A stretch of DNA of 64,000 nt from a virus (lineage: Duplodnaviria; Heunggongvirae; Uroviricota; Caudoviricetes; Straboviridae), in IMG/VR virus record IMGVR_UViG_638275429_000001, positions 23,740 through 87,739 of that record; one strand, written 5' to 3'. The translations under genes and the position numbers were made by a program. Numbering within the stretch: the first letter of the stretch is position 1; each line of letters begins with the position of its first letter. Below, piece by piece: positions 6,243 to 52,461 of the stretch. The notes below the pieces were generated by a model that saw nothing but the letters and a program-made list of their open reading frames with translations, was not told where the DNA came from and ran no database searches.

Positions 6243-6316
6243 AGGGTGTTCCTCCTATGAATGATTATATCATACCTGTAGGCTTGCTGAACTTATTTAA
6301 GTCTGCCTGGCTTCCA

Positions 6317-6424
6317 GGTTTGGCTCTGCCAAACTAGCATTTTTATCCTTTAAGGCCTAATAGATTATATAACCTAAAGGATAAAAAGGATAAATTCGAG
6401 CGAAGCTCGAACTGGCGAAGCCAG
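6317..6424. repeat. 108-bp perfect inverted repeat, copy A (partner at 52354-52461)
   Basis: ggtttggctctgccaaactagcatttttatcctttaaggcctaatagattatataacctaaaggataaaaaggataaattcgagcgaagctcgaactggcgaagccag; reverse complement is identical to 52354-52461; contains three short hairpins and a TTATATAA core. Confidence 0.9.
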
Positions 6425-18559: not shown

Positions 18560-20014
18560 TTATTTGATCGATGTGCGACTGCGAACTTGAGCAAGGCTGC
18601 TATTGTATTGAACGCCTTTCAAAGGGTGATGATAGTTGACCAACGCTGATTCAGACATAAGTTCAACAAAACCTTGGCTCAGTTTCACGTTGTAAAGCAT
18701 TTGCGAACCGTCAGCCAATTTGCTGTCGGTGTAGAAGCCACCGTCATCCAGCTTGCGAAGACCCAGTTGACCTTTCTTCGATGCCTTCCATTCAGCGCCT
18801 TTCGGGCACTTGAACACATCATACCAGACACCGTTAATTTTAATTGCAGACATCTTCATTGCCCATTTGCAAGTATCACGGTTAACCATCTGGAGCAACC
18901 CGCCGCCCATACCGAATGCAATGTTCTCAGCAGCCCAACCATTATCAGCCATCATGGTCAGAACTTCATCGATAATTTCCGGGCCATCGATGCCGTCGCC
19001 TTGGATAATGCGGCAATGCTTGTTCAGGACCTTGAAGCCTTTTGAGTTGGTTTCATAACCGAAGATTTCACCAAGAGTCTCGAGGGCATAAGTGATATTG
19101 TCGAACATATCACCAGAGTCCGGTCGAACAATCAGAGTACCACCTTTCGCAATTACTTCATCTTTGTAGCCTTCAATTTCGCGAACGGCACGTTTGAAGT
19201 CGGTAGAATCGTAGACAACAGAGTAAGCGCCAGTGCCGAACAAACGAACAGAGTTCATATAAGCTTCGGTTTCGCGTTCTGCACCCCAGGATGTAACAGT
19301 AGAGTGCTCACGAGCCGGTACAGAAATACCTGCCATCTTAGCGCCATACAGATGCTTCGCGAGATAAAGCGATTCAAAGGTATCGGTACCCATAGAGTTG
19401 TAGAGGTGGGCCATGCCGCCAAGAGCAGCAGATTCACCAGAACTTACGCCGCGTGAACCAAAATCATGCAAACGGGTCATCAGAACAAAGTTGAATTCCG
19501 GAGAATCGACGACCAAATCAGTTGTGTCGATCAAATGCTTGCGGATCATTGCAATGCATTCGCGACTTAGGGTGGCGACCGTCGAGGTGTACCAGACAGC
19601 TCGCAGAATAACCGGCTCGAACCAACCAGCAACCCAGGTGTAAGGTGCTTTACAGCGAACGGTCAGAACGACGTTCTTGACCGGCACAACGGTACCTTCA
19701 GGTACTGCGTCGATTTGGATAGGCAGGCAACCGTGTTTTTGCTGGTATGCGACTACTTCATCCCAACCTTTGCGGTTGAATACATCTTGACCGAAGTGAG
19801 CTTTGCTCATCTCATGCATTTCAGCAACATCTTCGTTGGTGATAATTTCCTGCAGTTTCGTCATCATGTACTCGATGCCGCCGATAACGATGTTATCGAA
19901 TTTTCCGCCACGAGCTTCGACGTAGAAGACCACTTCATCGGTGCCGTCGGGCATTTGGTTCCAATGGGTGATTTTGTAGGAGTCAGTCATTGCGATCAAA
20001 GGAATACGTTTCAT
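18560..20014 (-). CDS. nadV: nicotinamide phosphoribosyltransferase NadV (NAMPT family)
   Basis: 484 aa; hallmark TDSYKITHW motif near N-terminus and NAPRTase-family length. Confidence 0.85.
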   Translation of the reverse strand: MKRIPLIAMTDSYKITHWNQMPDGTDEVVFYVEARGGKFDNIVIGGIEYMMTKLQEIITNEDVAEMHEMSKAHFGQDVFNRKGWDEVVAYQQKHGCLPIQIDAVPEGTVVPVKNVVLTVRCKAPYTWVAGWFEPVILRAVWYTSTVATLSRECIAMIRKHLIDTTDLVVDSPEFNFVLMTRLHDFGSRGVSSGESAALGGMAHLYNSMGTDTFESLYLAKHLYGAKMAGISVPAREHSTVTSWGAERETEAYMNSVRLFGTGAYSVVYDSTDFKRAVREIEGYKDEVIAKGGTLIVRPDSGDMFDNITYALETLGEIFGYETNSKGFKVLNKHCRIIQGDGIDGPEIIDEVLTMMADNGWAAENIAFGMGGGLLQMVNRDTCKWAMKMSAIKINGVWYDVFKCPKGAEWKASKKGQLGLRKLDDGGFYTDSKLADGSQMLYNVKLSQGFVELMSESALVNYHHPLKGVQYNSSLAQVRSRTSIK

Positions 20015-22807: not shown

Positions 22808-23785
22808 TTAACGATTTTTTAGATATTCAAGCATCGCATCACTATAGACGTCAAGAACGAACTGGTTCCATGGTTCCACGTTAACCGCTGATGGCATGCC
22901 GTTTCGGCCAGCTTCTTTTGCAGCAGCGTCAACATCGTCAACGATCTGTTCAAGGCGAGCTTGCACTTCTTTGAATGGCAATTCACCAGCTTTAACCAGT
23001 TTGATTTCTTCGGCATTGGCCAATGGATACTTCAAATCGCCAGTCTGGTAGATTTCGAGCAACTGTAGACCGCCTCGCATCGCATGACTCAAAGCTTTCC
23101 AGTCGATACCTTCGTTGGCTTCAGCTTTACGGGCTCGTTCGCCGTACTCGTTCCAGAGCTTGTCGACAGCACCAGCAAACTCAGCAATTTTAACACCGGC
23201 CATATACTTACGACCCATCATTGTGTAGTACGAGTTAGTCTCTGGTTTTTCGCGATCGACCGTCCAGAAGCAAAATTCATTTGATGGCAGAGGTATTTTG
23301 AGTTCACGCAGACGAGGGTTTTCATGAATCTGAAGCGCATCCATGAAGTCCTTAACCTGTCGCAAAGCGGCCAGTCGAGAACCTTTCACACCATATTTCG
23401 CCGCCTGCTTCATGACATAGCTCATATAAGATGTCATGTTTGTTGTATAGAAACTCGAGCGTTGACTTTGGATAAACTGCCAAATCGCGGAGTCAGAAAC
23501 GATTTTGTCGGTTGGTGTGTGAAGCATATCGAGAGCAGCAGTTTCGCCTTTGACGCACTCATGAATGAATTGCTTAAGCGTAAACATTTCGATATCGATA
23601 TCATCCTTGCTGTTTTTGGATTTATCGTTGCCGGTTGTGATGGAATAACTTGATTTAACTTGTGATAGCAAGATATCTTTCGGATCAGGTATGAAAATGC
23701 CTTTCATATCCAGGTCAGATTCGGGTGTGTTCAGACCGTAAAGGTGAGAGCCGTGCAGACCCTCGAAAATAACTTTTTGCATCAT
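22808..23785 (-). CDS. Pol-beta-superfamily nucleotidyltransferase-like protein (325 aa)
   Basis: N-terminal FEGLHGSHLYGLNTPESDLDMKGIF = hGS...x9...[DE]hDh NTase motif, followed by DIDIE third acidic. Confidence 0.55.
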   Translation of the reverse strand: MMQKVIFEGLHGSHLYGLNTPESDLDMKGIFIPDPKDILLSQVKSSYSITTGNDKSKNSKDDIDIEMFTLKQFIHECVKGETAALDMLHTPTDKIVSDSAIWQFIQSQRSSFYTTNMTSYMSYVMKQAAKYGVKGSRLAALRQVKDFMDALQIHENPRLRELKIPLPSNEFCFWTVDREKPETNSYYTMMGRKYMAGVKIAEFAGAVDKLWNEYGERARKAEANEGIDWKALSHAMRGGLQLLEIYQTGDLKYPLANAEEIKLVKAGELPFKEVQARLEQIVDDVDAAAKEAGRNGMPSAVNVEPWNQFVLDVYSDAMLEYLKNR

Positions 23786-24711: not shown

Positions 24712-25806
24712 TTAAATGCCAGTGAAACGAGATATAATTTCAGCGTGATCATCGAACATACGCGCTCTGTTCTTTTTGTAGATGTGCATAGGCATCCAGA
24801 ACGCAGCTTTGGCATCGTCGTCAGCATTAACAGCCGGCAATTCACCGTTTGGGCCAGGACTGAGAACAATGTAATACGCAACAGTTGGCTTGCAGAATTC
24901 CGCGGTGCGCTTCGGGTGATCGAAAACTTCGTGCGCTTTGATAGAACCGATGATATCTTTTTCTTTGACCTCGATCTTGACTTCCTCAAAAAGTTCACGA
25001 ACAGCACATTGTTGGAAGGTCTCGTTCGCGTTCTTATGGCCACCGGGAAGGGCTAAAGCGTCTTTGCCAGGAGCATGCTTCCGCTCAATGAGCAAAATGT
25101 GGTTATTGCAGGTTACCACAGCATCAGCAGTATTGCAATTCAGAGCTTCGCGATATGGGTAATTCTCGAACTTCGCGAGTTCGTTATCCCACATTTTGCG
25201 CTCTTCCATCAAGCGGTCGCGGAGTTCGCGACCTTCAGTGTTCCAATATACGGAAAGGAAAGATCGCACTGTTGGGTTAATCGGGAATGCGCCGTTGATT
25301 ACGCCAGTTCGAAGAAACTCGTCGCGCATTGGGGTGTTTGAAATATCCGCCCCGTGGTTTTGAACACCCATACATTGAATATGATCCCAGCCGAAAGAGC
25401 GAATCCAATAAGAATCAGCATCTTTATCATAAGCCACCATTGCGACTTTTTCGCCAGCCTTTTCGCCAGCCTGTTCGCGAACTTCCGCCTGCCAACGATC
25501 TTCGTTGTACCGGTAATCCGGTACGTTGCCGAAAGTTACGCGTTTTTGCTCATATGGAGTCAAGTTCTCAGACATCCATTCCTTGAACATTCTAACGCGA
25601 ACCAGCGTAGGCAATGGGTTAATTGTGTTTGGGTAGCAATGAGATGAGCCAAAAACAACAGCTACGTTTTCGGCTGTCTGCAATGCTTTGTAGATAAGCA
25701 TTTCATGACCACGATGGAAAAAGCTGGAAAAACGACCAATTACTACAGCACGATCATAATCATAAGTCATATCATTAACCCCGATTTTTGTAACTGTTGA
25801 TTGCAA
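24712..25806 (-). CDS. natV: bifunctional NMN adenylyltransferase / Nudix hydrolase NatV (NadM-like)
   Basis: 364 aa; [11 protein letters not shown] (GxFxxxHxGH cytidylyltransferase motif) and Nudix box [26 protein letters not shown]. Confidence 0.85.
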
Positions 25807-32804: not shown

Positions 32805-33380
32805 TTATTTTTGAATTTTGCCTTCTTTCCAATGGCGACGACAGACCGATATGAAACGGTCATTGCCTCCGATTGAAACACGAGGACCCCAAATCTTTTC
32901 ACCATGTTCATTCATTCGCATGGTCATTGTTGCTTTCTTACCACACCAACAGATAGTCTCATGCTCAACTTTTCGTTCGGCCAATACTAAAAGCTCCGCT
33001 GATGCAGGGAAAAGATGCCCATTTGAGTCAGACAATAAGCCGTAGCACATAACAGGCACATTGATGTAGTCTACAACATCACCTAACTGATGAACCTGAT
33101 CAACCGTGAGGAACTGAGCTTCATCAACGAGAATGCAGTCAATTCCATCTAGCTCGATCAGTTTTTCGCAAAAGGCTTTAAGGTTATCGTCTTGGCTGAT
33201 CATATGCGCTTTTTGCGATATGCCGATACGCGAAGAAACATTATCGCCGTCACGGGTATCAATCGCTGGCTTAAGAATAAGCGGCTTCATGTTCCGCTCC
33301 ATGTAGTTGTACGCTACCTGAAGCAAGTGAGTTGATTTACCTGAATTCATAGCAGCATAATGGAAGTGCAATTTCGCCAT
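32805..33380 (-). CDS. tk: thymidine kinase
   Basis: 191 aa; MAKLHFHYAAMNSGKSTHLLQ (P-loop) and C-terminal zinc-binding cysteines; matches T4 Tk N-terminus. Confidence 0.9.
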   Translation of the reverse strand: MAKLHFHYAAMNSGKSTHLLQVAYNYMERNMKPLILKPAIDTRDGDNVSSRIGISQKAHMISQDDNLKAFCEKLIELDGIDCILVDEAQFLTVDQVHQLGDVVDYINVPVMCYGLLSDSNGHLFPASAELLVLAERKVEHETICWCGKKATMTMRMNEHGEKIWGPRVSIGGNDRFISVCRRHWKEGKIQK

Positions 33381-33853
33381 CAGAATACCCCATTCAGGCG
33401 TTTGTAGATTTCGTAGTTTGTGTGGAAAATGTCTTCAGTGACTTCCGGGCCAAACCAGGTTGGAATTGCTGTGAAATTCAAAGCGTCGTATTCGGATTTG
33501 AATTCGATTTCAGCGTATATTTCGCCGGTTTTCAGAATGTCCAATTCGATGATATGGTGCGAATATCCGGTTGGAATAAACCAGCGTTGCTTGACGATGC
33601 ATTCCGGGTAACCGGCCATCCGATGAATTTCCCATGCTTCATCACGAGAAATAAAGGTCTCAATCTCTTCACGAATAAGACCTAAACCAGTTTTAACGGT
33701 TTTGATAAAGACTTCTTCGCATCCAGCCTCCATAACGCTCCGATAACGAGCACCTTTGTGGTAGAATTGCGCGATATCCTGCTTTCGGTATGTTACATTT
33801 TTCTTAAATGGGAAGACAGGCACAACCCACTTGCGTTCAATTTCAAGCGCCAT
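33380..33853 (-). CDS. CYTH-domain protein (triphosphate tunnel metalloenzyme: class IV adenylate cyclase / triphosphatase-like)
   Basis: starts MALEIERKWVVP - EIERKF/W hallmark of CYTH; stop overlaps tk start. Confidence 0.55.
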   Translation of the reverse strand: MALEIERKWVVPVFPFKKNVTYRKQDIAQFYHKGARYRSVMEAGCEEVFIKTVKTGLGLIREEIETFISRDEAWEIHRMAGYPECIVKQRWFIPTGYSHHIIELDILKTGEIYAEIEFKSEYDALNFTAIPTWFGPEVTEDIFHTNYEIYKRLNGVF

Positions 33854-34175
33854 TATGTTTTCTCCGATAACCGACGGTAACAACTTCGTATTGTTCGACT
33901 TCTTCAGCTTCAACGAATTCACCTTCATTTTCCCAAGGCATTTCGTCTTGACATTCGGTGGCACCGGTGCGATAAGGCGCTCTGAAATTGCGTTTTATCA
34001 TGTCTTTTTCGAATGAGAATACAAAATCGTACTCTACGGTCCATCGGCCCTGATCAATGATGTCATTGACCAATGTCTCATAACTTCCACAGAAATCACT
34101 CGGCACACCTTCGCCGGGCACTATTTCAAATTTTTCACCAATAAGTTCACGCAACAAATGTTTAGGAAATTTCAC
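33843..34175 (-). CDS. hypothetical protein (110 aa)
   Basis: ORF. Confidence 0.4.
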   Translation of the reverse strand: MKFPKHLLRELIGEKFEIVPGEGVPSDFCGSYETLVNDIIDQGRWTVEYDFVFSFEKDMIKRNFRAPYRTGATECQDEMPWENEGEFVEAEEVEQYEVVTVGYRRKHNGA

Positions 34176-34369
34176 GCTATTAATCTCGTTTGGTTGATTA
34201 TAAGTTTACCGCCAACGACTAATTCGAAGTTAACGATTACCTCATCGCCGTCGTCTTTGAATGAATGAACGATTATGTTTTCACATCCATCCCCGAGCAA
34301 TCCAATAAAAGCTTCTTCAAAGACCCGGTTCATCACCGGGCCAGGTTTTTGCCATTTATTTGCTGCCAT
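34172..34369 (-). CDS. hypothetical small protein (start uncertain)
   Basis: ORF trimmed to internal Met to avoid long overlap with macro gene. Confidence 0.3.
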   Translation of the reverse strand: MAANKWQKPGPVMNRVFEEAFIGLLGDGCENIIVHSFKDDGDEVIVNFELVVGGKLIINQTRLIA

Positions 34370-34844
34370 CGAATTCCACCACAGTGATGTCGATGTTAGG
34401 AGTAACCTCGTCAATAATCGCGGAAATCTTACTCCAATCTCCGCGGGCGAGGCCAGCACCGATCATTGGAATACACATTGTCATATTGCTTCCGCCAACA
34501 CTCGTCTCTGCAACCGAATCGTTAAGCATAGTGAAAGTAGACCGGACAGCGTCATATGAAAGCATGTCGGTTGGGTCCCAAAATGTTGCCTGGGTGTACA
34601 TGTTGACGCCGCAGCTGGTACGACCTTCAACGTTTATCAGCGCTGCCTGAATAGTTCCGAGCTTATTGCGGTCGCCGCTAACAGTTTTCAAGTCCATTAC
34701 GTACAATTGAGGAAGTCTTTCACGAACTTCTTTCGCGATGCCGGAACCCATTCGGTTGAAAATGTTGCAACCATGGCCAAAGATGTCATATTTCCCTTCA
34801 AGGAACAGACTGATAGCATTACCCTTAACATATTGAACGATCAT
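34356..34844 (-). CDS. macro domain protein, TARG1/OARD1 (DarG-macro)-type ADP-ribose hydrolase
   Basis: 162 aa; GNAISLFLEG...DIFGHGCNIFNRMGSGIAKEV and MCIPMIGAGLARGDWSKISAIIDEV...IDITVVEF align with human OARD1 motifs (GDLFSCP...CRMGAGIA; MPRIGCGLDRLQWENV..IEEVF..I.I.VY). Confidence 0.65.
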   Translation of the reverse strand: MIVQYVKGNAISLFLEGKYDIFGHGCNIFNRMGSGIAKEVRERLPQLYVMDLKTVSGDRNKLGTIQAALINVEGRTSCGVNMYTQATFWDPTDMLSYDAVRSTFTMLNDSVAETSVGGSNMTMCIPMIGAGLARGDWSKISAIIDEVTPNIDITVVEFDGSK

Positions 34845-35281
34845 AGTGTGAATTCTCCTTTACCTGAAGATGTCGTTATAGACAGAACGTCGCCAATTGG
34901 ATTGAACGTCGGGTTGTCCATACGGCGAATTACAATGGCAGAGCCAGATCGAATGTAATCGACATTCTGAACAATACCGTTCAGACTGATCATTACACGT
35001 TCCGTACCTACCAATATGTTTTTGTCGTCGCGGGCGCCATCGATCAGCCAGTAATCACTGTTGAACACGATGCCTAAGCAATTGTCATATTGCTCGCGGA
35101 CTTCACGGTCGCACGAGGCGGATAGCGCCGATTCGTACGTACCATTCTCGTCAGTGAATTCTTGGATTACACCGGACTTTTGCGGAAAATGAAACATTTC
35201 ATTAACGTTGGCAGTAACTGGAGCAACTGCACTACATCCGTACATCCCGATGGCAATTAGTGTCGCGATTGATTTTTTCAT
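34841..35281 (-). CDS. lipoprotein (146 aa)
   Basis: signal peptide + GMYGC lipobox. Confidence 0.5.
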   Translation of the reverse strand: MKKSIATLIAIGMYGCSAVAPVTANVNEMFHFPQKSGVIQEFTDENGTYESALSASCDREVREQYDNCLGIVFNSDYWLIDGARDDKNILVGTERVMISLNGIVQNVDYIRSGSAIVIRRMDNPTFNPIGDVLSITTSSGKGEFTL

Positions 35282-35304
35282 GATTTTACTCCTTGGCGTG
35301 CAGT

Positions 35305-35532
35305 TTAAACGATGATTTCAAAGAATTTACGTTCGCTCATGAAAATCATGATATAAAAACCTTCAACTTCAATACAGTTTTTATTAGAGTCAACGATCTC
35401 GATAGTACCATCGTTTAGCCGATTTTCCGAAGGCCACCAGTTCATTCCTAAAAATTCAGCAATGACTTTATTTGCCGGCCGGATAGCGATGAATTCACCT
35501 CGACTTATTTTGGATTTGAATCGAACTTTCAT
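35305..35532 (-). CDS. hypothetical protein (75 aa)
   Basis: downstream of PeSL variant 35560-35594. Confidence 0.4.
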   Translation of the reverse strand: MKVRFKSKISRGEFIAIRPANKVIAEFLGMNWWPSENRLNDGTIEIVDSNKNCIEVEGFYIMIFMSERKFFEIIV

Positions 35533-35559
35533 TTTAATTACTCCGTTGTGTTTAACTTG

Positions 35560-35594
35560 AGGCTATAGTAATCCATAGCCTCATAGTTGTAAAC
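35560..35594 (-). promoter_or_regulatory. PeSL-type cassette (variant, gaggctatagtaatccatagcctcatagttgtaaac)
   Basis: same loop (tagtaatcc) as canonical copies with compensatory stem changes. Confidence 0.5.
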
Positions 35595-35596
35595 AT

Positions 35597-36148
35597 TTAT
35601 TTGTAAATGAATTCCATACTTTTAAGACGTTGGTTTTTCGAAAGAACGCGATCAGCATACCCAAGCCCAGCTTTGTAGTTCCAACCAGCGTTGTATGATG
35701 CCAAAGCCAATCGGATGTTGCCTTTTCGAACAGTCAGCCAATAGTGCAATTCGTCCATTGCCCATTCAGCGGAACCGCTTCGCGTTTCGAGGTCCTTTTT
35801 CAGATACCAATGACGAAACGGAATACCTCGTTGGTCCATCTTCTTAACAACAGTTTTGTAAAGATTCTGGAACATACCATAAGCATGGTGTCCTTTCTTT
35901 GAACGACCTGTGTTAAGACCAGCTGAAGATTCTTCCCATGCTATCGCCGCAAACAGAGTACCAAGGTGCCGCTGATTAAGGAAATTCGGGTGATCAACAT
36001 CTCGCTGATTTCCCATAAGGTCGTAACCTTTGCCATAGTAGTAGGCGTATGAAAGATTCGTTTTCTGAGTGTCCGTAAAATCTGGTGCCGACGGACCGGC
36101 AAAAACATGTGAGGTGAAAAGTAGGATTAGTATTGTCAAAAACCTCAT
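35597..36148 (-). CDS. secreted soluble lytic transglycosylase (SLT domain) with signal peptide
   Basis: 183 aa; signal MRFLTILILLFTSHVFA; AIAWEESS (catalytic Glu), GMFQ, ASYNAG SLT motifs. Confidence 0.65.
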   Translation of the reverse strand: MRFLTILILLFTSHVFAGPSAPDFTDTQKTNLSYAYYYGKGYDLMGNQRDVDHPNFLNQRHLGTLFAAIAWEESSAGLNTGRSKKGHHAYGMFQNLYKTVVKKMDQRGIPFRHWYLKKDLETRSGSAEWAMDELHYWLTVRKGNIRLALASYNAGWNYKAGLGYADRVLSKNQRLKSMEFIYK

Positions 36149-36594
36149 AAACCCTCCACTTTGATTACGCGGGTCGTCACATTCGATGATAAACGTCGAC
36201 TATTAACGATAGCCATTCTGCATGTGATCGCGGAACTGTATTCGCCGGATGGTGGTATTTTTGAAGTTGTTAAACCGATCCAGAGGTTGCCATCTGTAAT
36301 CTCCAGACGTATTGGCCTGTATTGCACTTGATCGTCGCGCTTGAGATCCAATGTCGGGGGATATGGCAAAGACATGTGCTCGTCAATCGCATCGAGATGA
36401 TCGTCGATTCGGTTAACTAGCTGTAAAACATAGTCGACGTCGATCTTGCGTATGATCAAATCATCTATGAAGTGGTAGGTGTATTCGAGGTGAAACTTGT
36501 GAGAACCTTGTCTCGTATTACGAGAGGCTTCAATACGACTATTGATTTCTTTAAATTTGTCCTCGAGGACTCTCCTGAGTTTGTAGCGATTCAT
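36145..36594 (-). CDS. hypothetical protein (149 aa)
   Basis: downstream of PeSL variant 36607-36652. Confidence 0.45.
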   Translation of the reverse strand: MNRYKLRRVLEDKFKEINSRIEASRNTRQGSHKFHLEYTYHFIDDLIIRKIDVDYVLQLVNRIDDHLDAIDEHMSLPYPPTLDLKRDDQVQYRPIRLEITDGNLWIGLTTSKIPPSGEYSSAITCRMAIVNSRRLSSNVTTRVIKVEGL

Positions 36595-36606
36595 GATATT
36601 CTCCTA

Positions 36607-41639: not shown

Positions 41640-41716
41640 TGGTGGTCCCTATTGGATTCGAACCAATGACCAACGACTTAGAACGACGTTGCTCTGTCCA
41701 GCTGAGCTAAGAGACC
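41640..41716 (-). tRNA. tRNA-Arg (anticodon TCT)
   Basis: 7-bp acceptor GGTCTCT/AGGGACC + A + CCA; D-arm GCTCAGCTGGACAGAGC; anticodon loop GTTCTAA; T-arm ATTGG-TTCGAAT-CCAAT. Confidence 0.6.
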
Positions 41717-41733
41717 AATTGAACGAAAGGCTT

Positions 41734-42183
41734 TTAACCAGCCTGAAGACTATCTCGAACTCTGTACAGATTTGAGCAAAATTCTTGCTCTGTTAGAACA
41801 GTTTCGTTTTTCTTGTTTTTGCCCATTGAATGGGTCAATGAAGAATTCCGGGTTGCCAGAATAGCTCGTTTGAAACCAGAATTCTTCGAAACTTCGTCGT
41901 AAGCGCGGCTAATAAGTTCCGAATACGCGTCACTTTGTCGGTGCATCGGTTTGCCACGCCAATAGAGAGTTTGGTCTCGCCACCAGTTTTTCTTTTTGCC
42001 TTTAAACTTCGCAGCTTTACCGACTAAAGAGCAAACATGCTCTTGCATCTCAGGCGATTTGAATTTAAGAGATTGCAAAAATCCTTCAATCGAGGCGCAA
42101 CGAACACCATCAATATAGAATTCATGAGGAGCGAAGTTACTTAATGCGCAGGATGGCCAAGAGGCACCAGAACCGATGTCCAT
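41734..42183 (-). CDS. NADAR-domain protein (YbiA/DUF1768 family; NAD/ADP-ribose-associated N-glycosidase)
   Basis: 149 aa; SNFAPHEFYIDGVRCASIEGFLQSLKF matches NADAR N-terminal signature (SNFyp..F..dG..y.S.EhyfQa.Kf). Confidence 0.6.
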   Translation of the reverse strand: MDIGSGASWPSCALSNFAPHEFYIDGVRCASIEGFLQSLKFKSPEMQEHVCSLVGKAAKFKGKKKNWWRDQTLYWRGKPMHRQSDAYSELISRAYDEVSKNSGFKRAILATRNSSLTHSMGKNKKNETVLTEQEFCSNLYRVRDSLQAG

Positions 42184-42199
42184 AACAAATATCTCACTT

Positions 42200-42568
42200 T
42201 TAAAGGGATTGTGTGAAAGTTCGCGTGATTACGTCCCGTTGTTGCTCAGGAGTTAATGCATTAAAGCGTACGGCATAACCGGAAACACGGATGGTTAGTT
42301 GGGGATATTTTTCTGGATTAACGATTGCATCTTCCAGGGTATTTCGGTCAAGAACATTTACGTTGAGATGCTGACCACCTTCAACAGTTGGCTCCGGCTG
42401 AACGTCAAAGAAACGTCCTGGGCGTCCACGAATAACCGAATCTTCGACGATAGTGTCGATTTCATAAGTTTTCGAAGCGATCACCTTGGCATTATTTGTC
42501 TGATCATCTACCAGGAAAATTGATCCATGATCATTCGAGCCATCAAGCAATTGGAAACCAATTAACAT
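42200..42568 (-). CDS. grcA: autonomous glycyl-radical cofactor GrcA/YfiD homolog (start uncertain: ATG at 42568 or TTG at 42637)
   Basis: C-terminal [61 protein letters not shown] nearly identical to E. coli GrcA; RVSGY glycyl radical motif. Confidence 0.85.
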
Positions 42569-42593
42569 ATTGTCCTCACTTTGTGGTGTAATC

Positions 42594-42672
42594 TGGTGGA
42601 TTTGGACCGGTCTCGAACCGACATCATCAGGATGCAAAGCAACCTACGGTCTTCCCATTAAACGACAAATCC
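42594..42672 (-). tRNA. tRNA-like element, type undetermined (atypical anticodon arm)
   Basis: perfect acceptor GGATTTG/CAAATCC + A + CCA, D-arm with GG, TTCGAGA T-loop; anticodon stem has mismatches; overlaps N-terminal homology region of GrcA ORF. Confidence 0.35.
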
Positions 42673-42684
42673 ATGATATTAATT

Positions 42685-42759
42685 TGGTGGCCCTGGCAGG
42701 AATCGAACCTGCTACGAGCGGTTATGAGCCGCCTGCTTGAACCGTCTAGCTACAGGGCC
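42685..42759 (-). tRNA. tRNA-Met or Ile2 (anticodon CAT)
   Basis: acceptor GGCCCTG/CAGGGCC + A + CCA; anticodon arm GGCGG-CTCATAA-CCGCT; T-arm GCAGG-TTCGATT-CCTGC. Confidence 0.7.
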
Positions 42760-42966
42760 TAGAGACGAAAAAGCCCATAACGGTCGATTGACAAGTCATG
42801 GGCATTGTTTTAATTAGGACGCTTGCTAGGGTCTCGAACCCATCACGAATATACGCACGTGTAGACTGCCAGACAACAAGTACTTAGTAAGCTAATTAAT
42901 GGTACTCACGGTGCACCGCTTTCACATATTTCGCTATTTTCCCACGTCTAAGCAAGCGATTGAAAT

Positions 42967-43043
42967 TGGATGCGACGGATGGATTCGAACCACCGATTTC
43001 CGGGATATGAGCCCGACGAGGACGACCTCTCCTCTACGTCGCA
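42967..43043 (-). tRNA. tRNA-Met or Ile2 (anticodon CAT), second copy
   Basis: acceptor TGCGACG/CGTCGCA + T + CCA; anticodon arm TCGGG-CTCATAT-CCCGG; T-loop TTCGAAT. Confidence 0.6.
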
Positions 43044-43065
43044 TTTGAATCTTGAGAATTTAGAG

Positions 43066-43138
43066 CGGAGCCACCGAGGATCGAACTCGGTGCTATCCCG
43101 TGACAGGGGATTATTTTAACCGTATAAACTATGGCTCC
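43066..43138 (-). tRNA. tRNA-Asp (anticodon GTC), CCA not encoded
   Basis: acceptor GGAGCCA/TGGCTCC + G; anticodon arm ATCCC-CTGTCAC-GGGAT; T-arm CCGAG-TTCGATC-CTCGG. Confidence 0.7.
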
Positions 43139-43211
43139 GCTCTAAACTCTGTTTTGGTATGAGTTAATCATATCATGAATTCAGATGTTTGAAACAAAAT
43201 GCTTTAAATCT

Positions 43212-43299
43212 TGGCGGAGAAGGAGAGATTCGAACTCTCGAAACCTTTCGGTTTACTTCCTTAGCAGGGAAGCGATTTAAACCGCTCATCCACTTCTCC
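43212..43299 (-). tRNA. tRNA-Ser (anticodon GCT), type II with long variable arm
   Basis: acceptor GGAGAAG/CTTCTCC + G + CCA; anticodon arm CTTCC-CTGCTAA-GGAAG; variable arm TAAACCGAAAGGTTTC; T-arm GAGAG-TTCGAAT-CTCTC. Confidence 0.7.
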
Positions 43300-43306
43300 T
43301 AGAATT

Positions 43307-43382
43307 TGGTAGTGGATACTGGGGTCGAACCAGTGCGCTCTCGATTATCGGTCGAGTGCTCTACCTACTGAGCTAATCCACT
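43307..43382 (-). tRNA. tRNA-Ile (anticodon GAT)
   Basis: acceptor AGTGGAT/ATCCACT + A + CCA; D-arm GCTCAGTAGGTAGAGC; anticodon arm CTCGA-CCGATAA-TCGAG; T-arm ACTGG-TTCGACC-CCAGT. Confidence 0.7.
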
Positions 43383-43384
43383 AT

Positions 43385-43460
43385 TGGCATGACATCAAGG
43401 ATTCGAACCCTGGCCGCACGGTTTTGGAGACCGGCATGCTACCGCTAACACCAATGTCAT
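43385..43460 (-). tRNA. tRNA-Trp (anticodon CCA), one mismatch in anticodon stem
   Basis: acceptor ATGACAT/ATGTCAT + G + CCA; anticodon loop CTCCAAA; T-arm CAGGG-TTCGAAT-CCTTG. Confidence 0.5.
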
Positions 43461-43616
43461 ATAAATCGATCTGGACGCACCATTTCCAGACAAAACCTCG
43501 TCGGAGGCCAAGGGCCAACAAGATATGATACAGACCGACGTCCTCGTCATATCCAGATGGTCTTCCCTTTTACTTTACGCTCGGGTCTTTTTCAAGAAAT
43601 CCGAACATTAACGTAA

Positions 43617-43793
43617 TGACAGAATAAAACGAATAACAATCGCTAACGGCCAAAGCAAGCCGACGAGTAAAGATCCAAAAATATTGCCAAAAACCTCTGA
43701 TGGCGTATCCGAATATCGCTTATAATCTCCAAGGAAAGAGCAAATAAACACGATAACGGCAATAACTTGGTATACAAGCAACATGATATTTCC
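43617..43793 (-). CDS. small hydrophobic peptide (about 58 aa, predicted 2 TM) within tRNA region
   Basis: MLLVYQVIAVIVFICSFLGDYKRYSDTPSEVFGNIFGSLLVGLLWPLAIVIRFILSLR by manual translation; below ORF-track cutoff. Confidence 0.3.
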
Positions 43794-43805
43794 CTTAATT
43801 AAATT

Positions 43806-43881
43806 TGGTGCCGATTGTCCGACTCGAACGGACCACCTGATGCTTACAAAACAACTGCTCTACCGGATGAGCTAAATCGGC
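43806..43881 (-). tRNA. tRNA-Thr (anticodon TGT)
   Basis: acceptor GCCGATT/AATCGGC + A + CCA; D-arm GCTCATCCGGTAGAGC; anticodon loop TTTGTAA; T-arm GTCCG-TTCGAGT-CGGAC. Confidence 0.6.
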
Positions 43882-43882
43882 A

Positions 43883-44242
43883 TTATTCTAAGATTGTCAG
43901 ACCGTCTTCGTCGGAGTATGCACGCACGGCATTTTCTGAACCCGTCAAGTGAATGAAACCTATTGGAGTGTGTGCATTAAATTTAGATAAAATATAAATC
44001 AGATCAGCAACCGTTATACCGAATGGGAGCGTAATTTCGCCGCAGTCGTGTTTCTTCCAATCGCGTTTTACTTCAGCGATTGAGTCAGAGTCAATTTCCC
44101 ATTCTTTTTGACAAACGACACATTTTCCAATCCAACCATCTCCGGCTCCACATGGGCCAAAACAGTATTCGTGCAGACCGATAAATTTATCTTGCCCACA
44201 GCATACATCAGGACGAGTAGTTGTAATATTTACAATTTTCAT
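43883..44242 (-). CDS. Cys-rich hypothetical protein (119 aa)
   Basis: multiple CxxC pairs (CCGQD, CFGPCG, CVVCQ). Confidence 0.45.
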   Translation of the reverse strand: MKIVNITTTRPDVCCGQDKFIGLHEYCFGPCGAGDGWIGKCVVCQKEWEIDSDSIAEVKRDWKKHDCGEITLPFGITVADLIYILSKFNAHTPIGFIHLTGSENAVRAYSDEDGLTILE

Positions 44243-44520
44243 AATGTTTTTCTCATGGTTTTGACAATTTTTCAGATTCTCTTAGCCGTTGCTGCAGCAT
44301 GGCACTGAAGTTTTTGAGGCTATCGCCTAAAATTATTTTACGTGGGGATAACTAATAACCTCCACATATTAAGAGAATCTGAAGAATTGGGCTCCGAAGA
44401 GCCTATTCTTCAATTGCGCCTTCGTGAATAACCGCATCACCAGTATTGCCGGGAGAGGATGTTACTGCATTTGACGACTTTATGGACTTGTTTGCAACCA
44501 AGTATCCACTCTATAGAATT

Positions 44521-44597
44521 TGGTCCGCGTGGAAGGATTCGAACCTCCGACTTTCTGGTCCCAAACCAGACGACCTACCTGACTAGCCTACACGCGG
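44521..44597 (-). tRNA. tRNA-Pro (anticodon TGG)
   Basis: acceptor CCGCGTG/CACGCGG + A + CCA; anticodon arm TCTGG-TTTGGGA-CCAGA; T-arm GGAGG-TTCGAAT-CCTTC. Confidence 0.7.
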
Positions 44598-44841
44598 AAA
44601 ATTTATACCCCGTCTATACTTTTTCGTTTCACCGAGCATGTCGGGAGTGACTACAGAAGTTCTGGCCGAGGATTTTACGAGACGTCTCCCGATTTCCTTG
44701 TTAATGCCGATCGTCATAACTTTCGTTAAGCGTCGGAGACAATACGTTTGCCCTACTCGCGTTCTCCAGTCACGGCGCAATAAAGGACAAGTGCAGCAAC
44801 CAGGGGTGCGAAACTGACTAGGAATCTAGAGCCCTGTGCCT

Positions 44842-45081
44842 TTAGCTCATTTCAGAATAAACTTTATTGATCAGGTCCATGTTGGCTTTTGCCATTGCAT
44901 ACTCTGGAGTATCACGTTCACGTTCAACCCATTCACATTTATCGTCGCAACACCATCCGCCGAATCGAGTACCCATAGATTTGTAGCATGCGGTTTTGAA
45001 CGATTTAATTCGCGATTTAGTGAGTGCGCGCAATTCATTTTCATCGAATTTGGTGTGAACAATATCGGTAGATCGCAACAT
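44842..45081 (-). CDS. hypothetical protein (about 79 aa; start trimmed to avoid tRNA overlap)
   Basis: CEWVERE...; longer ORF start would overlap tRNA-Gly. Confidence 0.35.
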   Translation of the reverse strand: MLRSTDIVHTKFDENELRALTKSRIKSFKTACYKSMGTRFGGWCCDDKCEWVERERDTPEYAMAKANMDLINKVYSEMS

Positions 45082-45102
45082 AATATTTTCCTCATTTTGT
45101 GT

Positions 45103-45178
45103 TGGAGCGGGTAGCCGGTATCGAACCGGTCTACTCAAGCTTGGAAGGCTAGCATGTATCCGTAAACACCTTACCCGC
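45103..45178 (-). tRNA. tRNA-Gly (anticodon TCC)
   Basis: acceptor GCGGGTA/TACCCGC + T + CCA; anticodon loop CTTCCAA; T-loop TTCGATA. Confidence 0.6.
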
Positions 45179-45192
45179 AAAATAATCATAGG

Positions 45193-45265
45193 GGTGACGG
45201 ACGAGGATTGAACTCGCGACGACCAGGATCACAACCTGGGGCTCTACCAGCTGAGCTACCGTCAC
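45193..45265 (-). tRNA. tRNA-His (anticodon GTG), CCA not encoded
   Basis: acceptor GTGACGG/CCGTCAC + C; D-arm GCTCAGCTGGTAGAGC; anticodon arm CCAGG-TTGTGAT-CCTGG perfect. Confidence 0.7.
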
Positions 45266-45385
45266 ACCTATGATTACTCAAAACTAAAACTGGTGGAGAT
45301 GACTAGAGTCGATTCTAGTAAGGCTTGTAAGGCGGGTCCATTACGAGGACCTGATGCTCTTTACATCTTACATCTCCAATGAATT

Positions 45386-45461
45386 TGGTACACCGTCTGA
45401 GATTCGAACTCAGAACCAACGGATTAAAGGTCCGCTACTCTGCCAATTGAGTTAACGATGC
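45386..45461 (-). tRNA. tRNA-Lys (anticodon TTT)
   Basis: acceptor GCATCGT/ACGGTGT (2 wobble) + A + CCA; D-arm ACTCAATTGGCAGAGT; anticodon arm GCGGA-CCTTTAA-TCCGT; T-arm CTGAG-TTCGAAT-CTCAG. Confidence 0.65.
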
Positions 45462-46025
45462 TCTTAAAAACTGTCTATCTTTATTTCTTTCGGTATTAAA
45501 GATTCGCAAAACGTCATCGAGCTGAGTTGAAGTGTTATCTACCCACTCGCCGTTTGCACCAAACATAAAATGCAGTTGTTTTTCTGTCTTAAAGCGGTCA
45601 TGGGTAAAGAAGTATGTTTGAATTTTATAATCACGAAATGGCGAATAACTTTGATATGTAGCCAATCGGTCGTATACTGATATGGTGCTGCCAATTTTAA
45701 AATGTCCAGGCCAAGCCGGATTGGTTAACACATATACATAACCTTCGCGAATACTAGAAGCTTTACCTAATCGATTATATTTAACATTTAGTAATGATCT
45801 ACGAACGTAGTTCAATTGCGAGCAAACACTCTTAATATAAGATGAGTTTTTGCGTAAAAATGGCAACTTAGTTGTGCGATATATGTGATTGAAGAAAATT
45901 CTTTTAACGAGATCATCTGTTATTTCAAAGTCGTAACAAGCGCACTCAAGTTCTAGATAAGTTGAATATCGAGCAATCACATCATTCATAATAAATTTCC
46001 ACAATTTAGTGCAACGGAATTCCAA
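45435..46025 (-). CDS. T5orf172/MUG113 (GIY-YIG-like) domain protein, putative homing-endonuclease-like mobile gene in tRNA cluster
   Basis: 196 aa; C-terminal GYVYVLTNPAWPGHFKIGSTISVYDRLATYQ matches T5orf172 signature (GxVYxxxN...KIGxT....R). Confidence 0.5.
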   Translation of the reverse strand: MEFRCTKLWKFIMNDVIARYSTYLELECACYDFEITDDLVKRIFFNHIYRTTKLPFLRKNSSYIKSVCSQLNYVRRSLLNVKYNRLGKASSIREGYVYVLTNPAWPGHFKIGSTISVYDRLATYQSYSPFRDYKIQTYFFTHDRFKTEKQLHFMFGANGEWVDNTSTQLDDVLRIFNTERNKDRQFLRASLTQLAE

Positions 46026-46064
46026 CCAGTATTGGTTATGTTACGGTAATTCCGATGCGAAATT

Positions 46065-46147
46065 TGGTGGAACGCCTTGGACTCGAACCAAGAATGCCAG
46101 AGGCGAGCGGGTTACAGCCGCTTGGGATACCATTACCCGAACGTTCC
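46065..46147 (-). tRNA. tRNA-Tyr (anticodon GTA), type II
   Basis: acceptor GGAACGT/GCGTTCC + A + CCA; anticodon arm AGCGG-CTGTAAC-CCGCT; long variable arm; T-arm CTTGG-TTCGAGT-CCAAG. Confidence 0.7.
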
Positions 46148-46160
46148 AATAAATTGGTTT

Positions 46161-46246
46161 TGGCGGTGATGACTGGACTCGAACCAGTATAGAGGAAATT
46201 CCTCGCGGATTAACAGTCCGCCGCTCAACCTCTGAGCCACATCACC
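46161..46246 (-). tRNA. tRNA-Asn (anticodon GTT) with unusually long (17-nt hairpin) variable arm
   Basis: acceptor GGTGATG/CATCACC + G + CCA; anticodon arm GCGGA-CTGTTAA-TCCGC perfect; extra arm GAGGAATTTCCTCTATA; T-arm ACTGG-TTCGAGT-CCAGT. Confidence 0.5.
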
Positions 46247-46327
46247 CCAAAATCAACTTGTTTTAATCGATGAGATAATCTTAAACTATCTCCAGCAATT
46301 CTGAACATCAAATGCTTCAGAATTAAT

Positions 46328-46412
46328 GGTTGCTGGAAGGATTCGAACCTTCGAGGTCTTTCAACCCGTCCCGTTTCCAGGGACCGCCTTCAGCCACTCG
46401 GCTCACAGCAAC
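46328..46412 (-). tRNA. type II tRNA (Ser/Leu class), anticodon loop TGGAAAC (GAA/GGA ambiguous)
   Basis: acceptor GTTGCTG/CAGCAAC + C; 3-bp D-stem with 11-nt loop; anticodon stem GTCCC/GGGAC; variable hairpin GGGTTGAAAGACC; T-arm GAAGG-TTCGAAT-CCTTC. Confidence 0.5.
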
Positions 46413-46482
46413 ATAATTTGTCATCCACTCGGTTCACCCCAGAATCCCGGAGATGCTGGCGCATGCGAACATGGATGGTGTT

Positions 46483-46576
46483 TGGCGGAAGCTATCCGAT
46501 TTGAACGGATGGACCGTATTCCTACGATCGCTAGTTTTCAAGACTAGTGCAATAAGCCAGACTCTGCCAAGCTTCC
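46483..46576 (-). tRNA. tRNA-Ser (anticodon TGA), type II
   Basis: acceptor GGAAGCT/AGCTTCC + G + CCA; anticodon arm CTAGT-CTTGAAA-ACTAG perfect; long variable arm; T-arm ATCCG-TTCAAAT-CGGAT. Confidence 0.7.
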
Positions 46577-46766
46577 TGAATTCTTTTCAAATCTAAACAC
46601 GTCCTACGTCACTAGGCTGAGAGTTCTGTCCGATTAAGGCTTGCTCCAGGAAAACTACAGCTTCTCACTGTTTATCCCATTCAAGACTGAATGCGTGTTT
46701 TGATTTGATAAGATGATAATAAACTATTTCTAGCAATCCTGAACAAATGCTTCAGGATTTTGAATT

Positions 46767-46850
46767 TGGTAGGAGAGGAGGGACTCGAACCCTCAATCCC
46801 GAAGGCGGGAGGTTTTAAGCCTCCTGTGTATGCCGTTCCACCACACTCCC
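46767..46850 (-). tRNA. tRNA-Leu (anticodon TAA), type II
   Basis: acceptor GGGAGTG/CTCTCCT (1 mismatch) + A + CCA; anticodon arm GGAGG-CTTAAAA-CCTCC; variable arm CGCCTTCGGGATT; T-arm GAGGG-TTCGAGT-CCCTC. Confidence 0.65.
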
Positions 46851-46994
46851 ACAAATAACTCCAGGTGCTCGGGTCTATACTTCCCCGTTTACCGAAGCCC
46901 AGTCCATCCGCCGTAACTTAATCGGTTCAATATTAAGGATGTAACCGCTTCGCTTCCTTACCGCATCGCACCGACCTTTTGTTATTTCGTATAT

Positions 46995-47186
46995 CTATTT
47001 ATAACGATCTGGCAGATGAATTATTGCCCTAGAACCACAAACGGGGCAACCTGGCTGTCTGTTCAATAGACCTTTCACCTTTTGCCATGAACACTCCCTG
47101 AGTGTCCAGGTTTTACCACAACCCCAGCAAACGTTTTCAAGGTCATGCAGCCGTTCAGCGTATCGAGTAATGTCACGATTCGTCAT
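46995..47186 (-). CDS. zinc-ribbon protein (63 aa)
   Basis: CWGCG...CPVCG. Confidence 0.45.
   Translation of the reverse strand: MTNRDITRYAERLHDLENVCWGCGKTWTLRECSWQKVKGLLNRQPGCPVCGSRAIIHLPDRYK
46997..47004 (-). promoter_or_regulatory. T4-type late promoter core TATAAATA (minus strand) upstream of tRNA cluster
   Basis: exact TATAAATA on minus strand; only exact match noticed by eye. Confidence 0.3.
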
Positions 47187-50415: not shown

Positions 50416-50446
50416 GATACAAAAAAATGCCCTCCGTAGAGGGCAT
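50416..50446 (-). terminator. Rho-independent terminator downstream of 57B/acb1-like gene
   Basis: ATGCCCTCTACGGAGGGCAT + TTTTTTTGTATC on minus. Confidence 0.65.
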
Positions 50447-50874
50447 CAGTCAGCATCAAGTGCTTCCATATACTCATGTGAGCTAACGATTGGAAATTCG
50501 TAAGAACCCATAAAAGATGAAGAGCCTACATCTTTAGCGATTGTGATATGAGGAATGTATTCGTCAAAGTCGTAAGATGCTCCTAAAAGCATACCTTGAG
50601 CGAATCGTTTATTCATGTGGCTGGATTCGAAAGCCAGAACCAAAACGTTTTTGGTTGGAGTCTCAAATACGCGTAATTCTGCGCTATTAGCTAACAGTGT
50701 CGGCATATCTGATGGAATAAACGGAATCTCTTCACGGCTATAAATGATGGTTGAGTGAAGTTCATCGCGAGGCACTGGATTAAAAATCGGCAGCGCCTCT
50801 TGAATCTTTTGGATTGCATCCAACGTTTCTTCACTAAACCGGCAGGCTACATATGTACCTACCGGAGTTTCCAT
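50446..50874 (-). CDS. 57B: 2H phosphoesterase at the gene 57B position; Acb1-like (anti-CBASS cyclic-oligonucleotide phosphodiesterase) candidate
   Basis: 142 aa; two H-x-T/S-x motifs (HSTII, HITIA) typical of 2H/LigT superfamily; located 57B-57A-1 exactly as T4 acb1. Confidence 0.6.
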   Translation of the reverse strand: METPVGTYVACRFSEETLDAIQKIQEALPIFNPVPRDELHSTIIYSREEIPFIPSDMPTLLANSAELRVFETPTKNVLVLAFESSHMNKRFAQGMLLGASYDFDEYIPHITIAKDVGSSSFMGSYEFPIVSSHEYMEALDAD

Positions 50875-52327: not shown

Positions 52328-52353
52328 AAAACCACCTTTAATTAAAAACTTAA

Positions 52354-52461
52354 CTGGCTTCGCCAGTTCGAGCTTCGCTCGAATTTATCCTTTTTATCCT
52401 TTAGGTTATATAATCTATTAGGCCTTAAAGGATAAAAATGCTAGTTTGGCAGAGCCAAACC
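52354..52461. repeat. 108-bp perfect inverted repeat, copy B (partner at 6317-6424)
   Basis: exact reverse complement of 6317-6424; sits between gene 2 stop and gene 3 start. Confidence 0.9.

Follow-up and report, generated by a model that had tools for sequence, protein, structure and literature searches.

A Gln-type macrodomain protein of Aeromonas phage 44RR2.8t, ortholog of T4 Tk.4 (AdfM), as a probable eraser of DarT2-made DNA ADP-ribosylation

Introduction

Does a small early gene of a T4-like Aeromonas phage encode an antidote against the ADP-ribosylation that the host toxin DarT makes on phage DNA, and what does its active site suggest about the chemistry? The gene encodes a protein of 162 amino acids and lies at positions 34356..34844 of the window, the stretch of 64,000 nucleotides analyzed here (positions 23,740 to 87,739 of the IMG/VR record IMGVR_UViG_638275429_000001). 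A sequence-only reading had described this open reading frame (ORF) as a phage macro domain of the TARG1/DarG type, a candidate eraser of ADP-ribosylation and a possible anti-DarT factor, located in an accessory region together with genes for NAD+ salvage and a NADAR protein. The ORF exists exactly there, on the minus strand, which that reading had left unstated. Over bases 33000-36600, which include the gene, the window shows 100% identity with the sequence of Aeromonas phage 44RR2.8t (NC_005135.1; hereafter 44RR), a T4-like phage of the Straboviridae, genus Biquartavirus, and window positions were obtained from record positions by subtracting 23739. The ORF is ST44RRORF104c (NP_932459.1), it starts with ATG, and GenBank annotates it as Tk.4, 'similar to T4 NP_049723.1'; this annotation is not new and has been present since the genome was deposited.

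The identity of the gene, its orthology, the fold of its product and the constellation of its active site follow directly from the present analysis. We consider it probable that 44RR Tk.4, like its T4 ortholog, which has been renamed AdfM, is a stand-alone macrodomain that erases the thymine-linked ADP-ribose left by DarT2 on single-stranded phage DNA.

Results

Orthology to T4 tk.4

44RR Tk.4 and T4 Tk.4 align over their full length with 33% identity (BLASTP, E = 3e-28). Searches by tblastn in both directions gave one significant match each, at tk.4, the reverse search covering an 8-kb T4 locus. With one match per record listed, tblastn also detected relatives in 2633 phage records, typically beside vs or tk. 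The gene order in 44RR is tk, ORF101c, ORF102c, ORF103c, tk.4, ORF105c, ORF106c, vs.1, regB; in T4 it is tk, tk.1, tk.2, tk.3, tk.4, vs, vs.1, regB. The 44RR gene itself is thus part of the tk-vs.1-regB early block, which is conserved among T4-like phages, and this qualifies its assignment to an accessory region. The tk...vs.1/regB synteny was also found in 23 of the 80 viral loci on which all neighbourhood counts given here are based, namely the best 80 IMG/VR loci carrying a homolog. By sequence and by position, the 44RR gene is the ortholog of T4 tk.4.

The function of the T4 gene has been addressed genetically in a preprint of November 2025 (bioRxiv 10.1101/2025.11.20.689424). It reports that tk.4 was the single significant match when a T4 transposon library was grown on a DarTG2 host (HIDEN-SEQ), that a clean tk.4 knockout was sensitized to DarTG2, and that the need for the gene was limited to DarTG2 hosts; the gene was renamed adfM, for anti-DarT factor Macrodomain. 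Independently, the same name has been given to the macrodomain protein PhiKZ gp104, which removes thymidine-linked ADP-ribose in vitro and protects chimalliviruses from DarTG2 (PMC13309987). The proposal that the 44RR protein is an eraser of ADP-ribosylation acting against DarT is supported by its orthology to T4 tk.4 and by the DarTG2 genetics of the latter. The idea is not new, because the role of the T4 ortholog has been published and the 44RR gene had already been annotated. We infer that 44RR Tk.4 shares the activity of T4 Tk.4 and that its Aeromonas hosts carry DarTG2.

A separate observation concerns the T4 mutant clone T4_7t1 (OL964745, L002:4071-4446). The annotation of this clone splits tk.4 into two fragments, each a 'macro domain-containing protein', and tblastn matched it in three pieces; the gene appears to be disrupted. 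Such a disruption would fit the dispensability of tk.4 on hosts without DarTG2.

Fold of the 44RR protein

The assignment to the macrodomains was supported by concordant sequence and structure searches. With the single sequence, phmmer against the PDB matched SCO6735 (4.5e-5), BT1257 (5e-5) and human TARG1 (9e-4). A family profile built from 34 members raised these matches to 1.2e-21 for SCO6735, 5e-24 for BT1257 and 1.5e-13 for TARG1, and also detected DarG of Mycobacterium tuberculosis (4.7e-13) and of Thermus aquaticus (1e-12). PHROG 335, labeled 'phosphatase', matched 44RR Tk.4 at 4e-57. An AlphaFold2 model, computed from an alignment of 51 sequences (A2) from which the T4 row was left out, reached a mean predicted local distance difference test score (pLDDT) of 94.6 and a predicted template modeling score (pTM) of 0.90. 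Foldseek comparison of this model with the PDB returned TARG1 (7.9e-10), BT1257 (4.7e-9) and ADP-ribose-bound DarG (1.2e-8), then Poa1p, and SCO6735 (1.7e-6), every top match being a macrodomain or a design built on a macro scaffold. The DarG structures superposed on the model with template modeling scores of 0.73-0.79 and root-mean-square deviations of 2.8-2.9 Å (Foldseek). On this model, 44RR Tk.4 has the three-layer alpha/beta/alpha macro fold, and it is placed in the ALC1-like/TARG1 class of the macrodomain superfamily. The macro domain claimed from the letters was therefore borne out by phmmer, profile, model and Foldseek alike, and the comparison with TARG1 and DarG structures gave a macro fold.

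The Pfam family Macro (PF01661) was not matched by the 44RR sequence in a direct Pfam scan. A precomputed PF01661 match exists for 20 of 62 homologs of 44RR Tk.4. The family is too divergent for PF01661, and we consider the Pfam miss to be outweighed by the fold and profile evidence. An RPN7 match in Pfam (E = 0.24) was rejected as spurious and, given the PDB, profile and fold evidence, the miss was not taken against the macrodomain. When the family hidden Markov model was run over 730 six-frame segments of the window, a single match was obtained (3e-69); the 64 kb contain no other macrodomain.

A Gln-type active site

The two motifs quoted in the sequence-only reading, GHGCNIFNRMGSGIA and IPMIGAGLARGDW...IDEV...DITVVEF, are present in the ORF. 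We compared their residues in an alignment of nine proteins (A3), which contains 44RR Tk.4, T4 Tk.4, AG74 gp177, SCO6735, BT1257, TARG1, two DarGs and PhiKZ gp104. Both glycine-rich loops for ADP-ribose/diphosphate binding (MGxGIA and IGxGLxxG) are present: G33, G35 and G129 are invariant in all nine, and the Tk.4 family also keeps G131 and G135 without exception. The codons for H24-G25-C26-N27 occupy positions 34764..34775 (minus strand); in the alignments A1, A2 and A3, N27 corresponds to Asn27 of SCO6735 and to Asn22 of DarG, and it is kept in 81 of 81 family members. The segment N81-M-Y-T84-Q85 is encoded at 34590..34604 (minus strand). Its Q85 corresponds to Gln85 of SCO6735 and stands where TARG1 has Lys84 and DarG Lys80; Gln was counted at this catalytic column in 78 of 81 members. 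The second, diphosphate-binding loop, P126-M-I-G-A-G-L-A133-R-G-D-W137, is encoded at 34434..34469 (minus strand), with A133 at the position of Asp125 of TARG1. The HMMER alignment of the family with TARG1 pairs T-Q with T83-K84, G-L-A-R-G with G-L-D125-R-L, and H-G-C-N27 with H-C-I-S26.

The proteins of A3 fall into two groups at the catalytic column, which holds Gln in 44RR Tk.4, T4 Tk.4, AG74 gp177, SCO6735 and BT1257, and Lys in TARG1, both DarGs and PhiKZ gp104. T4 Tk.4 shows the same preference in the PDB: it matched BT1257 at 1.3e-9, with yeast Poa1p as the second-best match, as opposed to 5e-4 for DarG and 6e-4 for TARG1. Judged from these comparisons, the 44RR Tk.4 family is closest to SCO6735/BT1257 and is of the Gln type at its active site, with neither the catalytic Lys nor the Asp. 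The motif-for-motif agreement with TARG1 and DarG that had been proposed thus holds for the two phosphate-binding loops and fails at the catalytic residues (Q85 for K84, A133 for D125), and the active site belongs to the SCO6735/BT1257 type, not to that of TARG1/DarG.

The absence of these residues does not preclude activity on DNA in a relative. SCO6735 lacks the catalytic residues of TARG1/DarG, yet it takes thymidine-linked ADP-ribose off single-stranded DNA and rescues cells from DarT (PMC9411070). The substitution Q85A inactivates the enzyme and N27S nearly does; a water-mediated mechanism has been proposed (PMC9411070).

Association with NAD+ genes in other phages

The neighbourhoods of homologs in other phages point to a second possible role, in the metabolism of ADP-ribose. 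Genes of the NadV/Namat type occur at most 6 kb from the macro gene in 13 of the 80 loci, where about 2 would be expected by chance; this rough estimate assumes NadV in about a quarter of large phages, a frequency taken from PMC9503650. The order NatV, macro, NadV on one strand recurs in L053/L056, L062/L064, L069 and L074/L075, with gaps of 4-13 nucleotides to NatV and of 105-422 nucleotides on the other side. In L067, too, NatV adjoins the macro gene directly, but NadV lies about 1.9 kb downstream, L065 has the order Prs, macro, Namat, and in Vibrio phage AG74 (L006:3132-6162) the macro gene stands between a ribose-phosphate pyrophosphokinase-like gene, which it abuts, and a nicotinamide phosphoribosyltransferase gene; L081, L086 and L087 are further such loci. 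The Q85/N27 constellation is conserved across the 80-locus set, the NAD+-operon loci included. Several of these loci are, however, near-duplicates, which leaves about 8 independent architectures, and the clustering could just mirror the tendency of counter-defence genes to group.

In a survey of phage macrodomains, Iyer et al. (2022) raised both soluble ADP-ribose derivatives and DNA adducts as substrates, predicted soluble derivatives for most of these proteins, and described NADAR genes in NAD+ salvage neighbourhoods (PMC9503650). Our literature search found no paper joining NARP1 and a macrodomain, and the NARP3 paper has no macrodomain content. KVP40, the prototype NadV/NatV phage, was considered as a model for the NadV/NatV-macro linkage and rejected: its homolog, KVP40.0092 (L088:5001-5513), belongs to an RNA-repair neighbourhood rather than one of NAD+ genes, being located one gene downstream from pseT and close to rnlA.

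Gene organization around tk.4

All features of this section are on the minus strand unless stated otherwise. A Shine-Dalgarno sequence, AAGGAG, can be read at 34860..34855 (ctcctt on the plus strand), 10 nucleotides 5′ of the ATG at 34844. The tk.4 start and the stop of ORF105c, the upstream neighbour, overlap in the sequence ATGA, and the 3′ end of tk.4 shares 14 nucleotides with the start of the downstream ORF103c; tk.4 therefore belongs to a series of early-region genes that are closely packed and share one orientation. A scan for promoters and terminators revealed promoter-like sites in two intergenic gaps, one upstream of regB and the other between vs.1 and ORF106c. The latter gap contains a candidate sigma-70-like promoter, TTTACA-17-TACTAT, at 35565..35593, by consensus match only, from which a transcript ORF106c-ORF105c-tk.4-ORF103c-...-tk could start. 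This assignment is tentative, because promoter-like matches in the region were no commoner than in shuffled controls (13 versus 11.5 ± 3.5).

None of the neighbours (ORF101c-103c, 105c and 106c) matches Pfam, and all fall into PHROGs of unknown function, save for a weak goF-like match of ORF106c; by Pfam and PHROG, no darT gene adjoins tk.4. The slot that in T4 is taken by vs, the valyl-tRNA synthetase modifier, is filled in 44RR by two unrelated ORFs at 34841..35532. ORF105c (146 amino acids) has a lipoprotein-like N-terminus, MKKSIATLIAIGMYGC; ORF106c (75 amino acids) gave the goF-like PHROG match at 4.6e-10. The unannotated ORF101c (33380..33853; 157 amino acids, starting MALEIERKW) follows the tk.4 cluster directly on its downstream side and borders on tk. 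It has no Pfam match, belongs to PHROG 6660, whose function is not known, and matches the PDB entries 3typ (6.9e-5) and 2fbl/NE1496 (1.6e-4). We take NE1496 to be an inorganic triphosphatase of the CYTH/triphosphate-tunnel type.

Other counter-defence genes in the window

The window also carries the NAD+ salvage and NADAR genes that the sequence-only reading had set in the same region as the macro gene. Their presence was confirmed; they are, however, not adjacent to tk.4 and share no operon with it. All lie on the minus strand. A NadV-type nicotinamide phosphoribosyltransferase (NARP2) is encoded at 18560..20014 (Pfam NAPRTase 1.8e-40, NAMPT_N 2.3e-26), about 14.3 kb from tk.4. About 8.6 kb away, at 24712..25770, is a NatV-type bifunctional nicotinamide mononucleotide (NMN) adenylyltransferase/Nudix protein (NARP2), whose C-terminal half matches Pfam NUDIX (5.8e-19); its N-terminal part has an FHRGH nucleotidyltransferase-like motif, and it is annotated as similar to NMN adenylyltransferase/NUDIX hydrolase. 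The homolog of 30.3, a NADAR protein of the AdfN family, maps to 41734..42183 (Pfam Phage_30_3 1.8e-55), about 6.9 kb from tk.4. Finally, a homolog of 57B/Acb1, an anti-CBASS protein, is located at 50446..50874 (Pfam Acb1 2.1e-40), about 15.6 kb from tk.4. T4 30.3 is the NADAR eraser AdfN, a proven anti-DarTG1 factor (PMC11825919). From its sequence, the 30.3 homolog is likely to provide a partner activity against the guanine-ADP-ribosylation made by DarT1, while not belonging to the same unit as tk.4.

Two other features were noted in the window. An annotated cluster of 17 tRNA genes and small ORFs extends over 41640..47151 (minus strand) and begins with a tRNA-Arg gene that, with respect to transcription, lies just downstream of the 30.3/AdfN homolog. 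The GenBank record also marks a 112-bp intergenic repeat, with '6 copies in the genome', two of which are in the window, at 6313..6424 (minus strand) and 52350..52461 (plus strand).

Discussion

The reading that we favor for 44RR Tk.4 can be set out as a sequence of events. Early in infection, expression of the leftward tk-regB gene block would supply the 162-residue macrodomain. Its two glycine-rich loops (residues 32-37 and 128-135) would bind the ADP-ribose moiety, and the protein would hydrolyze the N-glycosidic bond that joins ADP-ribose to thymine on single-stranded DNA of the phage modified by the host DarT2. Free ADP-ribose would be released and the template made fit again for copying by the replisome. 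The reaction would most likely follow the chemistry of SCO6735, in which Gln85, held by Asn27, positions the distal ribose and water does the work; the lysine-based chemistry of DarG and TARG1 is unlikely for this protein. Together with the 30.3/AdfN homolog, acting on the guanine-linked ADP-ribose of DarT1, Tk.4 would cover both known kinds of DNA ADP-ribosylation.

Several observations weigh against this reading. Only 33% identity links 44RR Tk.4 to the T4 protein that was tested experimentally, and the support from T4 consists of genetics reported in a preprint (bioRxiv 10.1101/2025.11.20.689424). Our literature search yielded no evidence for or against DarTG2 in Aeromonas hosts. Residues of SCO6735 are also replaced, Val25 by Gly25 and the DNA-contacting Lys34 and Lys89 by S34 and W89. 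44RR Tk.4 is acidic (isoelectric point 4.9), whereas the DNA groove of SCO6735 has been described as highly electropositive (PMC9411070). Moreover, the mobile loop that follows the Gln is about 4 residues shorter and without Lys, while the SCO6735 loop contains Lys89 and Lys94. Because of these differences in Val25, Lys34, Lys89, loop and charge, the mode of DNA engagement of SCO6735 is not transferable to 44RR Tk.4. Lastly, genes of this lineage occur in other phages within operons for NAD+ reconstitution or next to genes for RNA repair, neighbourhoods that hint at soluble ADP-ribose derivatives as substrates.

This last point is the basis of the strongest alternative, that Tk.4 is an enzyme of ADP-ribose metabolites working with the NAD+ reconstitution of the phage. 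It would convert ADP-ribose-1''-phosphate, O-acetyl-ADP-ribose or other host ADP-ribose signals or toxins to free ADP-ribose, which would be recycled by the Nudix activity of NatV and by NadV (NARP2) or by Adps/Namat (NARP1). Poa1p, the second-best PDB match of T4 Tk.4, is an ADP-ribose-1''-phosphate phosphatase, and the T4 protein was historically annotated as 'phosphatase; contains A1pp phosphatase motif'. In T4, however, Tk.4 comes without NadV/NatV in the tk.4 neighbourhood examined, and the sole conditional phenotype reported is on DarTG2; in 44RR the 8.6-14.3 kb that separate tk.4 from NatV and NadV leave no shared operon. Because of the T4 DarTG2 phenotype and of this missing linkage in 44RR, we rank the metabolic role second to that of a DNA eraser. 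It is rather unlikely as the explanation for 44RR, and it is compatible with erasure of DNA marks.

The two roles could also be combined. The Tk.4 lineage would then be a separate one, SCO6735/BT1257-like and of the Gln type rather than a captured DarG, with a double duty: it would strip ADP-ribose from DarT2-modified DNA, or from other ADP-ribose conjugates and derivatives, and channel the product to NAD+ reconstitution. Such a double duty would explain the repeated embedding of the macro gene in NatV-macro-NadV and Adps-macro-Namat operons. We offer this proposal as speculation with a modest chance of being right; if true, the macrodomain would be an unrecognized third component of the NARP1/NARP2-type pathways.

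An eraser of protein or RNA ADP-ribosylation is improbable. Such an enzyme would reverse or tune the marks of phage ADP-ribosyltransferases of the Alt/Mod type, or counter a host defence in which an ADP-ribosyltransferase targets proteins or mRNA. Both SCO6735 and TARG1 cleave Glu/Asp-linked ADP-ribose from proteins as well (PMC9411070), and 44RR carries alt and duplicated alt-like genes (PMC1524935). The location of tk.4 in the early host-takeover region, near regB and the goF-like ORF, both of which have functions in mRNA metabolism, would fit such a role. However, T4 Alt, ModA and ModB modify arginine, a linkage that this macrodomain class is not known to cleave. In addition, T-even phages are robustly restricted by CmdTAC, which ADP-ribosylates mRNA, despite their Tk.4, according to the abstract of PMC11618068, and no genetic phenotype of the protein or RNA type is reported for tk.4 in the available part of bioRxiv 10.1101/2025.11.20.689424. 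Least probable is a non-catalytic binder that neutralizes DarT or another NAD+-using effector directly, or sequesters a signal derived from ADP-ribose, without hydrolysis: in vitro, the SCO6735 mutant Q85A inhibits DarT although its catalysis is dead, and more than DarG or TARG1 mutants do (PMC9411070), and 44RR Tk.4 lacks the classical catalytic Lys and Asp, but the family shows almost no variation at N27, N81, T84 and Q85, as fits a conserved catalytic center, Q85 and N27 being the residues needed for hydrolysis by SCO6735, and the C-terminal domain by which DarG occludes DarT is absent.

Removal of DarT2-made thymine-ADP-ribose by a Gln-type macrodomain therefore remains our preferred explanation for 44RR Tk.4. 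For the window itself the consequence is small: a reader with only the letters at hand recovered what is probably the true function. For the phage, AdfM, AdfN, NadV/NatV and Acb1 amount to four or five counter-defence functions within about 32 kb, and 44RR2.8t would be a compact natural example of a layered counter-defence set directed against NAD+- and ADP-ribose-based defences in an aquaculture-relevant Aeromonas phage. More generally, the occurrence of the Tk.4 lineage in NAD+ reconstitution operons suggests a testable metabolic link between the erasure of ADP-ribosylation and the rebuilding of NAD+.

Comparison with known macrodomain systems

T4 Tk.4 is the nearest characterized counterpart. 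It occupies the same slot between tk and vs.1/regB, is of similar size (155 versus 162 amino acids in 44RR), carries the same HGCN, N-x-Y-T-Q and IGAG motifs, and BT1257 is the best PDB relative of both proteins. The two differ by their hosts, Escherichia and Aeromonas respectively, by the adjoining vs gene, which in 44RR is replaced by the unrelated 105c and 106c, and by their scores against the DarG model (36 bits for T4 versus 20 bits for 44RR). Among solved structures, SCO6735 (5e3b) and BT1257 (2afc/2fg1) are the closest relatives by profile. They are free-standing, have no adjacent DarT, and share Asn27 and Gln85 at the same positions; their identity to 44RR Tk.4 is about 25%, and SCO6735 is the product of a cellular SOS-linked gene while 44RR tk.4 is viral.

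DarG (T. aquaticus 5m31/5m3e; M. tuberculosis 5m3i) resembles 44RR Tk.4 in its fold, in the Asn of loop 1 and in its presumed substrate, thymidine-linked ADP-ribose on single-stranded DNA. It differs by the catalytic Lys80, replaced by Gln85, and by its C-terminal DarT-binding domain, for which the 162-residue phage protein has no equivalent. The DarG model of PADLOC was the only defence-library model matched, through its macro half (9.5e-5 for 44RR, 1.3e-9 for T4), the 44RR match covering model positions 22-143 of 329. With the NCBIfam DarG model, 44RR Tk.4 scored 12.5 bits as against a curated cutoff of 250 bits. Membership in DarG was rejected on the missing catalytic Lys and C-terminal domain, the score below the cutoff and the absence of an adjacent darT. 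TARG1/OARD1 (4j5r/4j5s), the top Foldseek match, aligns well in both phosphate-binding loops, and its Lys84, Asp125 and Ser26 are replaced by Gln85, Ala133 and Asn27. With Q85 and A133 at these positions, the Lys84-Asp125 dyad that defines the Schiff-base mechanism of TARG1 is absent from 44RR Tk.4.

The anti-DarT factors of other phages fall into distinct classes. ICP1 AdfB was dropped as a comparator, being a 77-residue mimic of the DarG C-terminal domain and not a macrodomain. T4 30.3/AdfN represents the same strategy as Tk.4, that of an orphan enzyme which erases the ADP-ribosylation made by DarT on DNA, but it has the unrelated NADAR fold and is specific for guanine-linked ADP-ribose (DarT1), not for the thymine-linked form. 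PhiKZ gp104 (L007:22518-23003) shares with 44RR Tk.4 the AdfM name, the length of 162 amino acids, the stand-alone macrodomain and the action against DarTG2. It differs in that it matches only DarG in the PDB (9e-25), carries the catalytic Lys78 in FPTK, is imported into the phage nucleus and is expressed late; the two proteins share only a local match of 29 residues. PhiKZ AdfM was accordingly rejected as the closest known relative, since it belongs to a separate, DarG-like lineage of the Lys type. As judged from their sequences, the T4-type and PhiKZ-type AdfM proteins are different macrodomain lineages, with Gln and Lys, respectively, at the catalytic position. Because lineages and catalytic residues differ, neither mechanistic conclusions nor predictions about inhibitors and escape should be transferred from one AdfM to the other.

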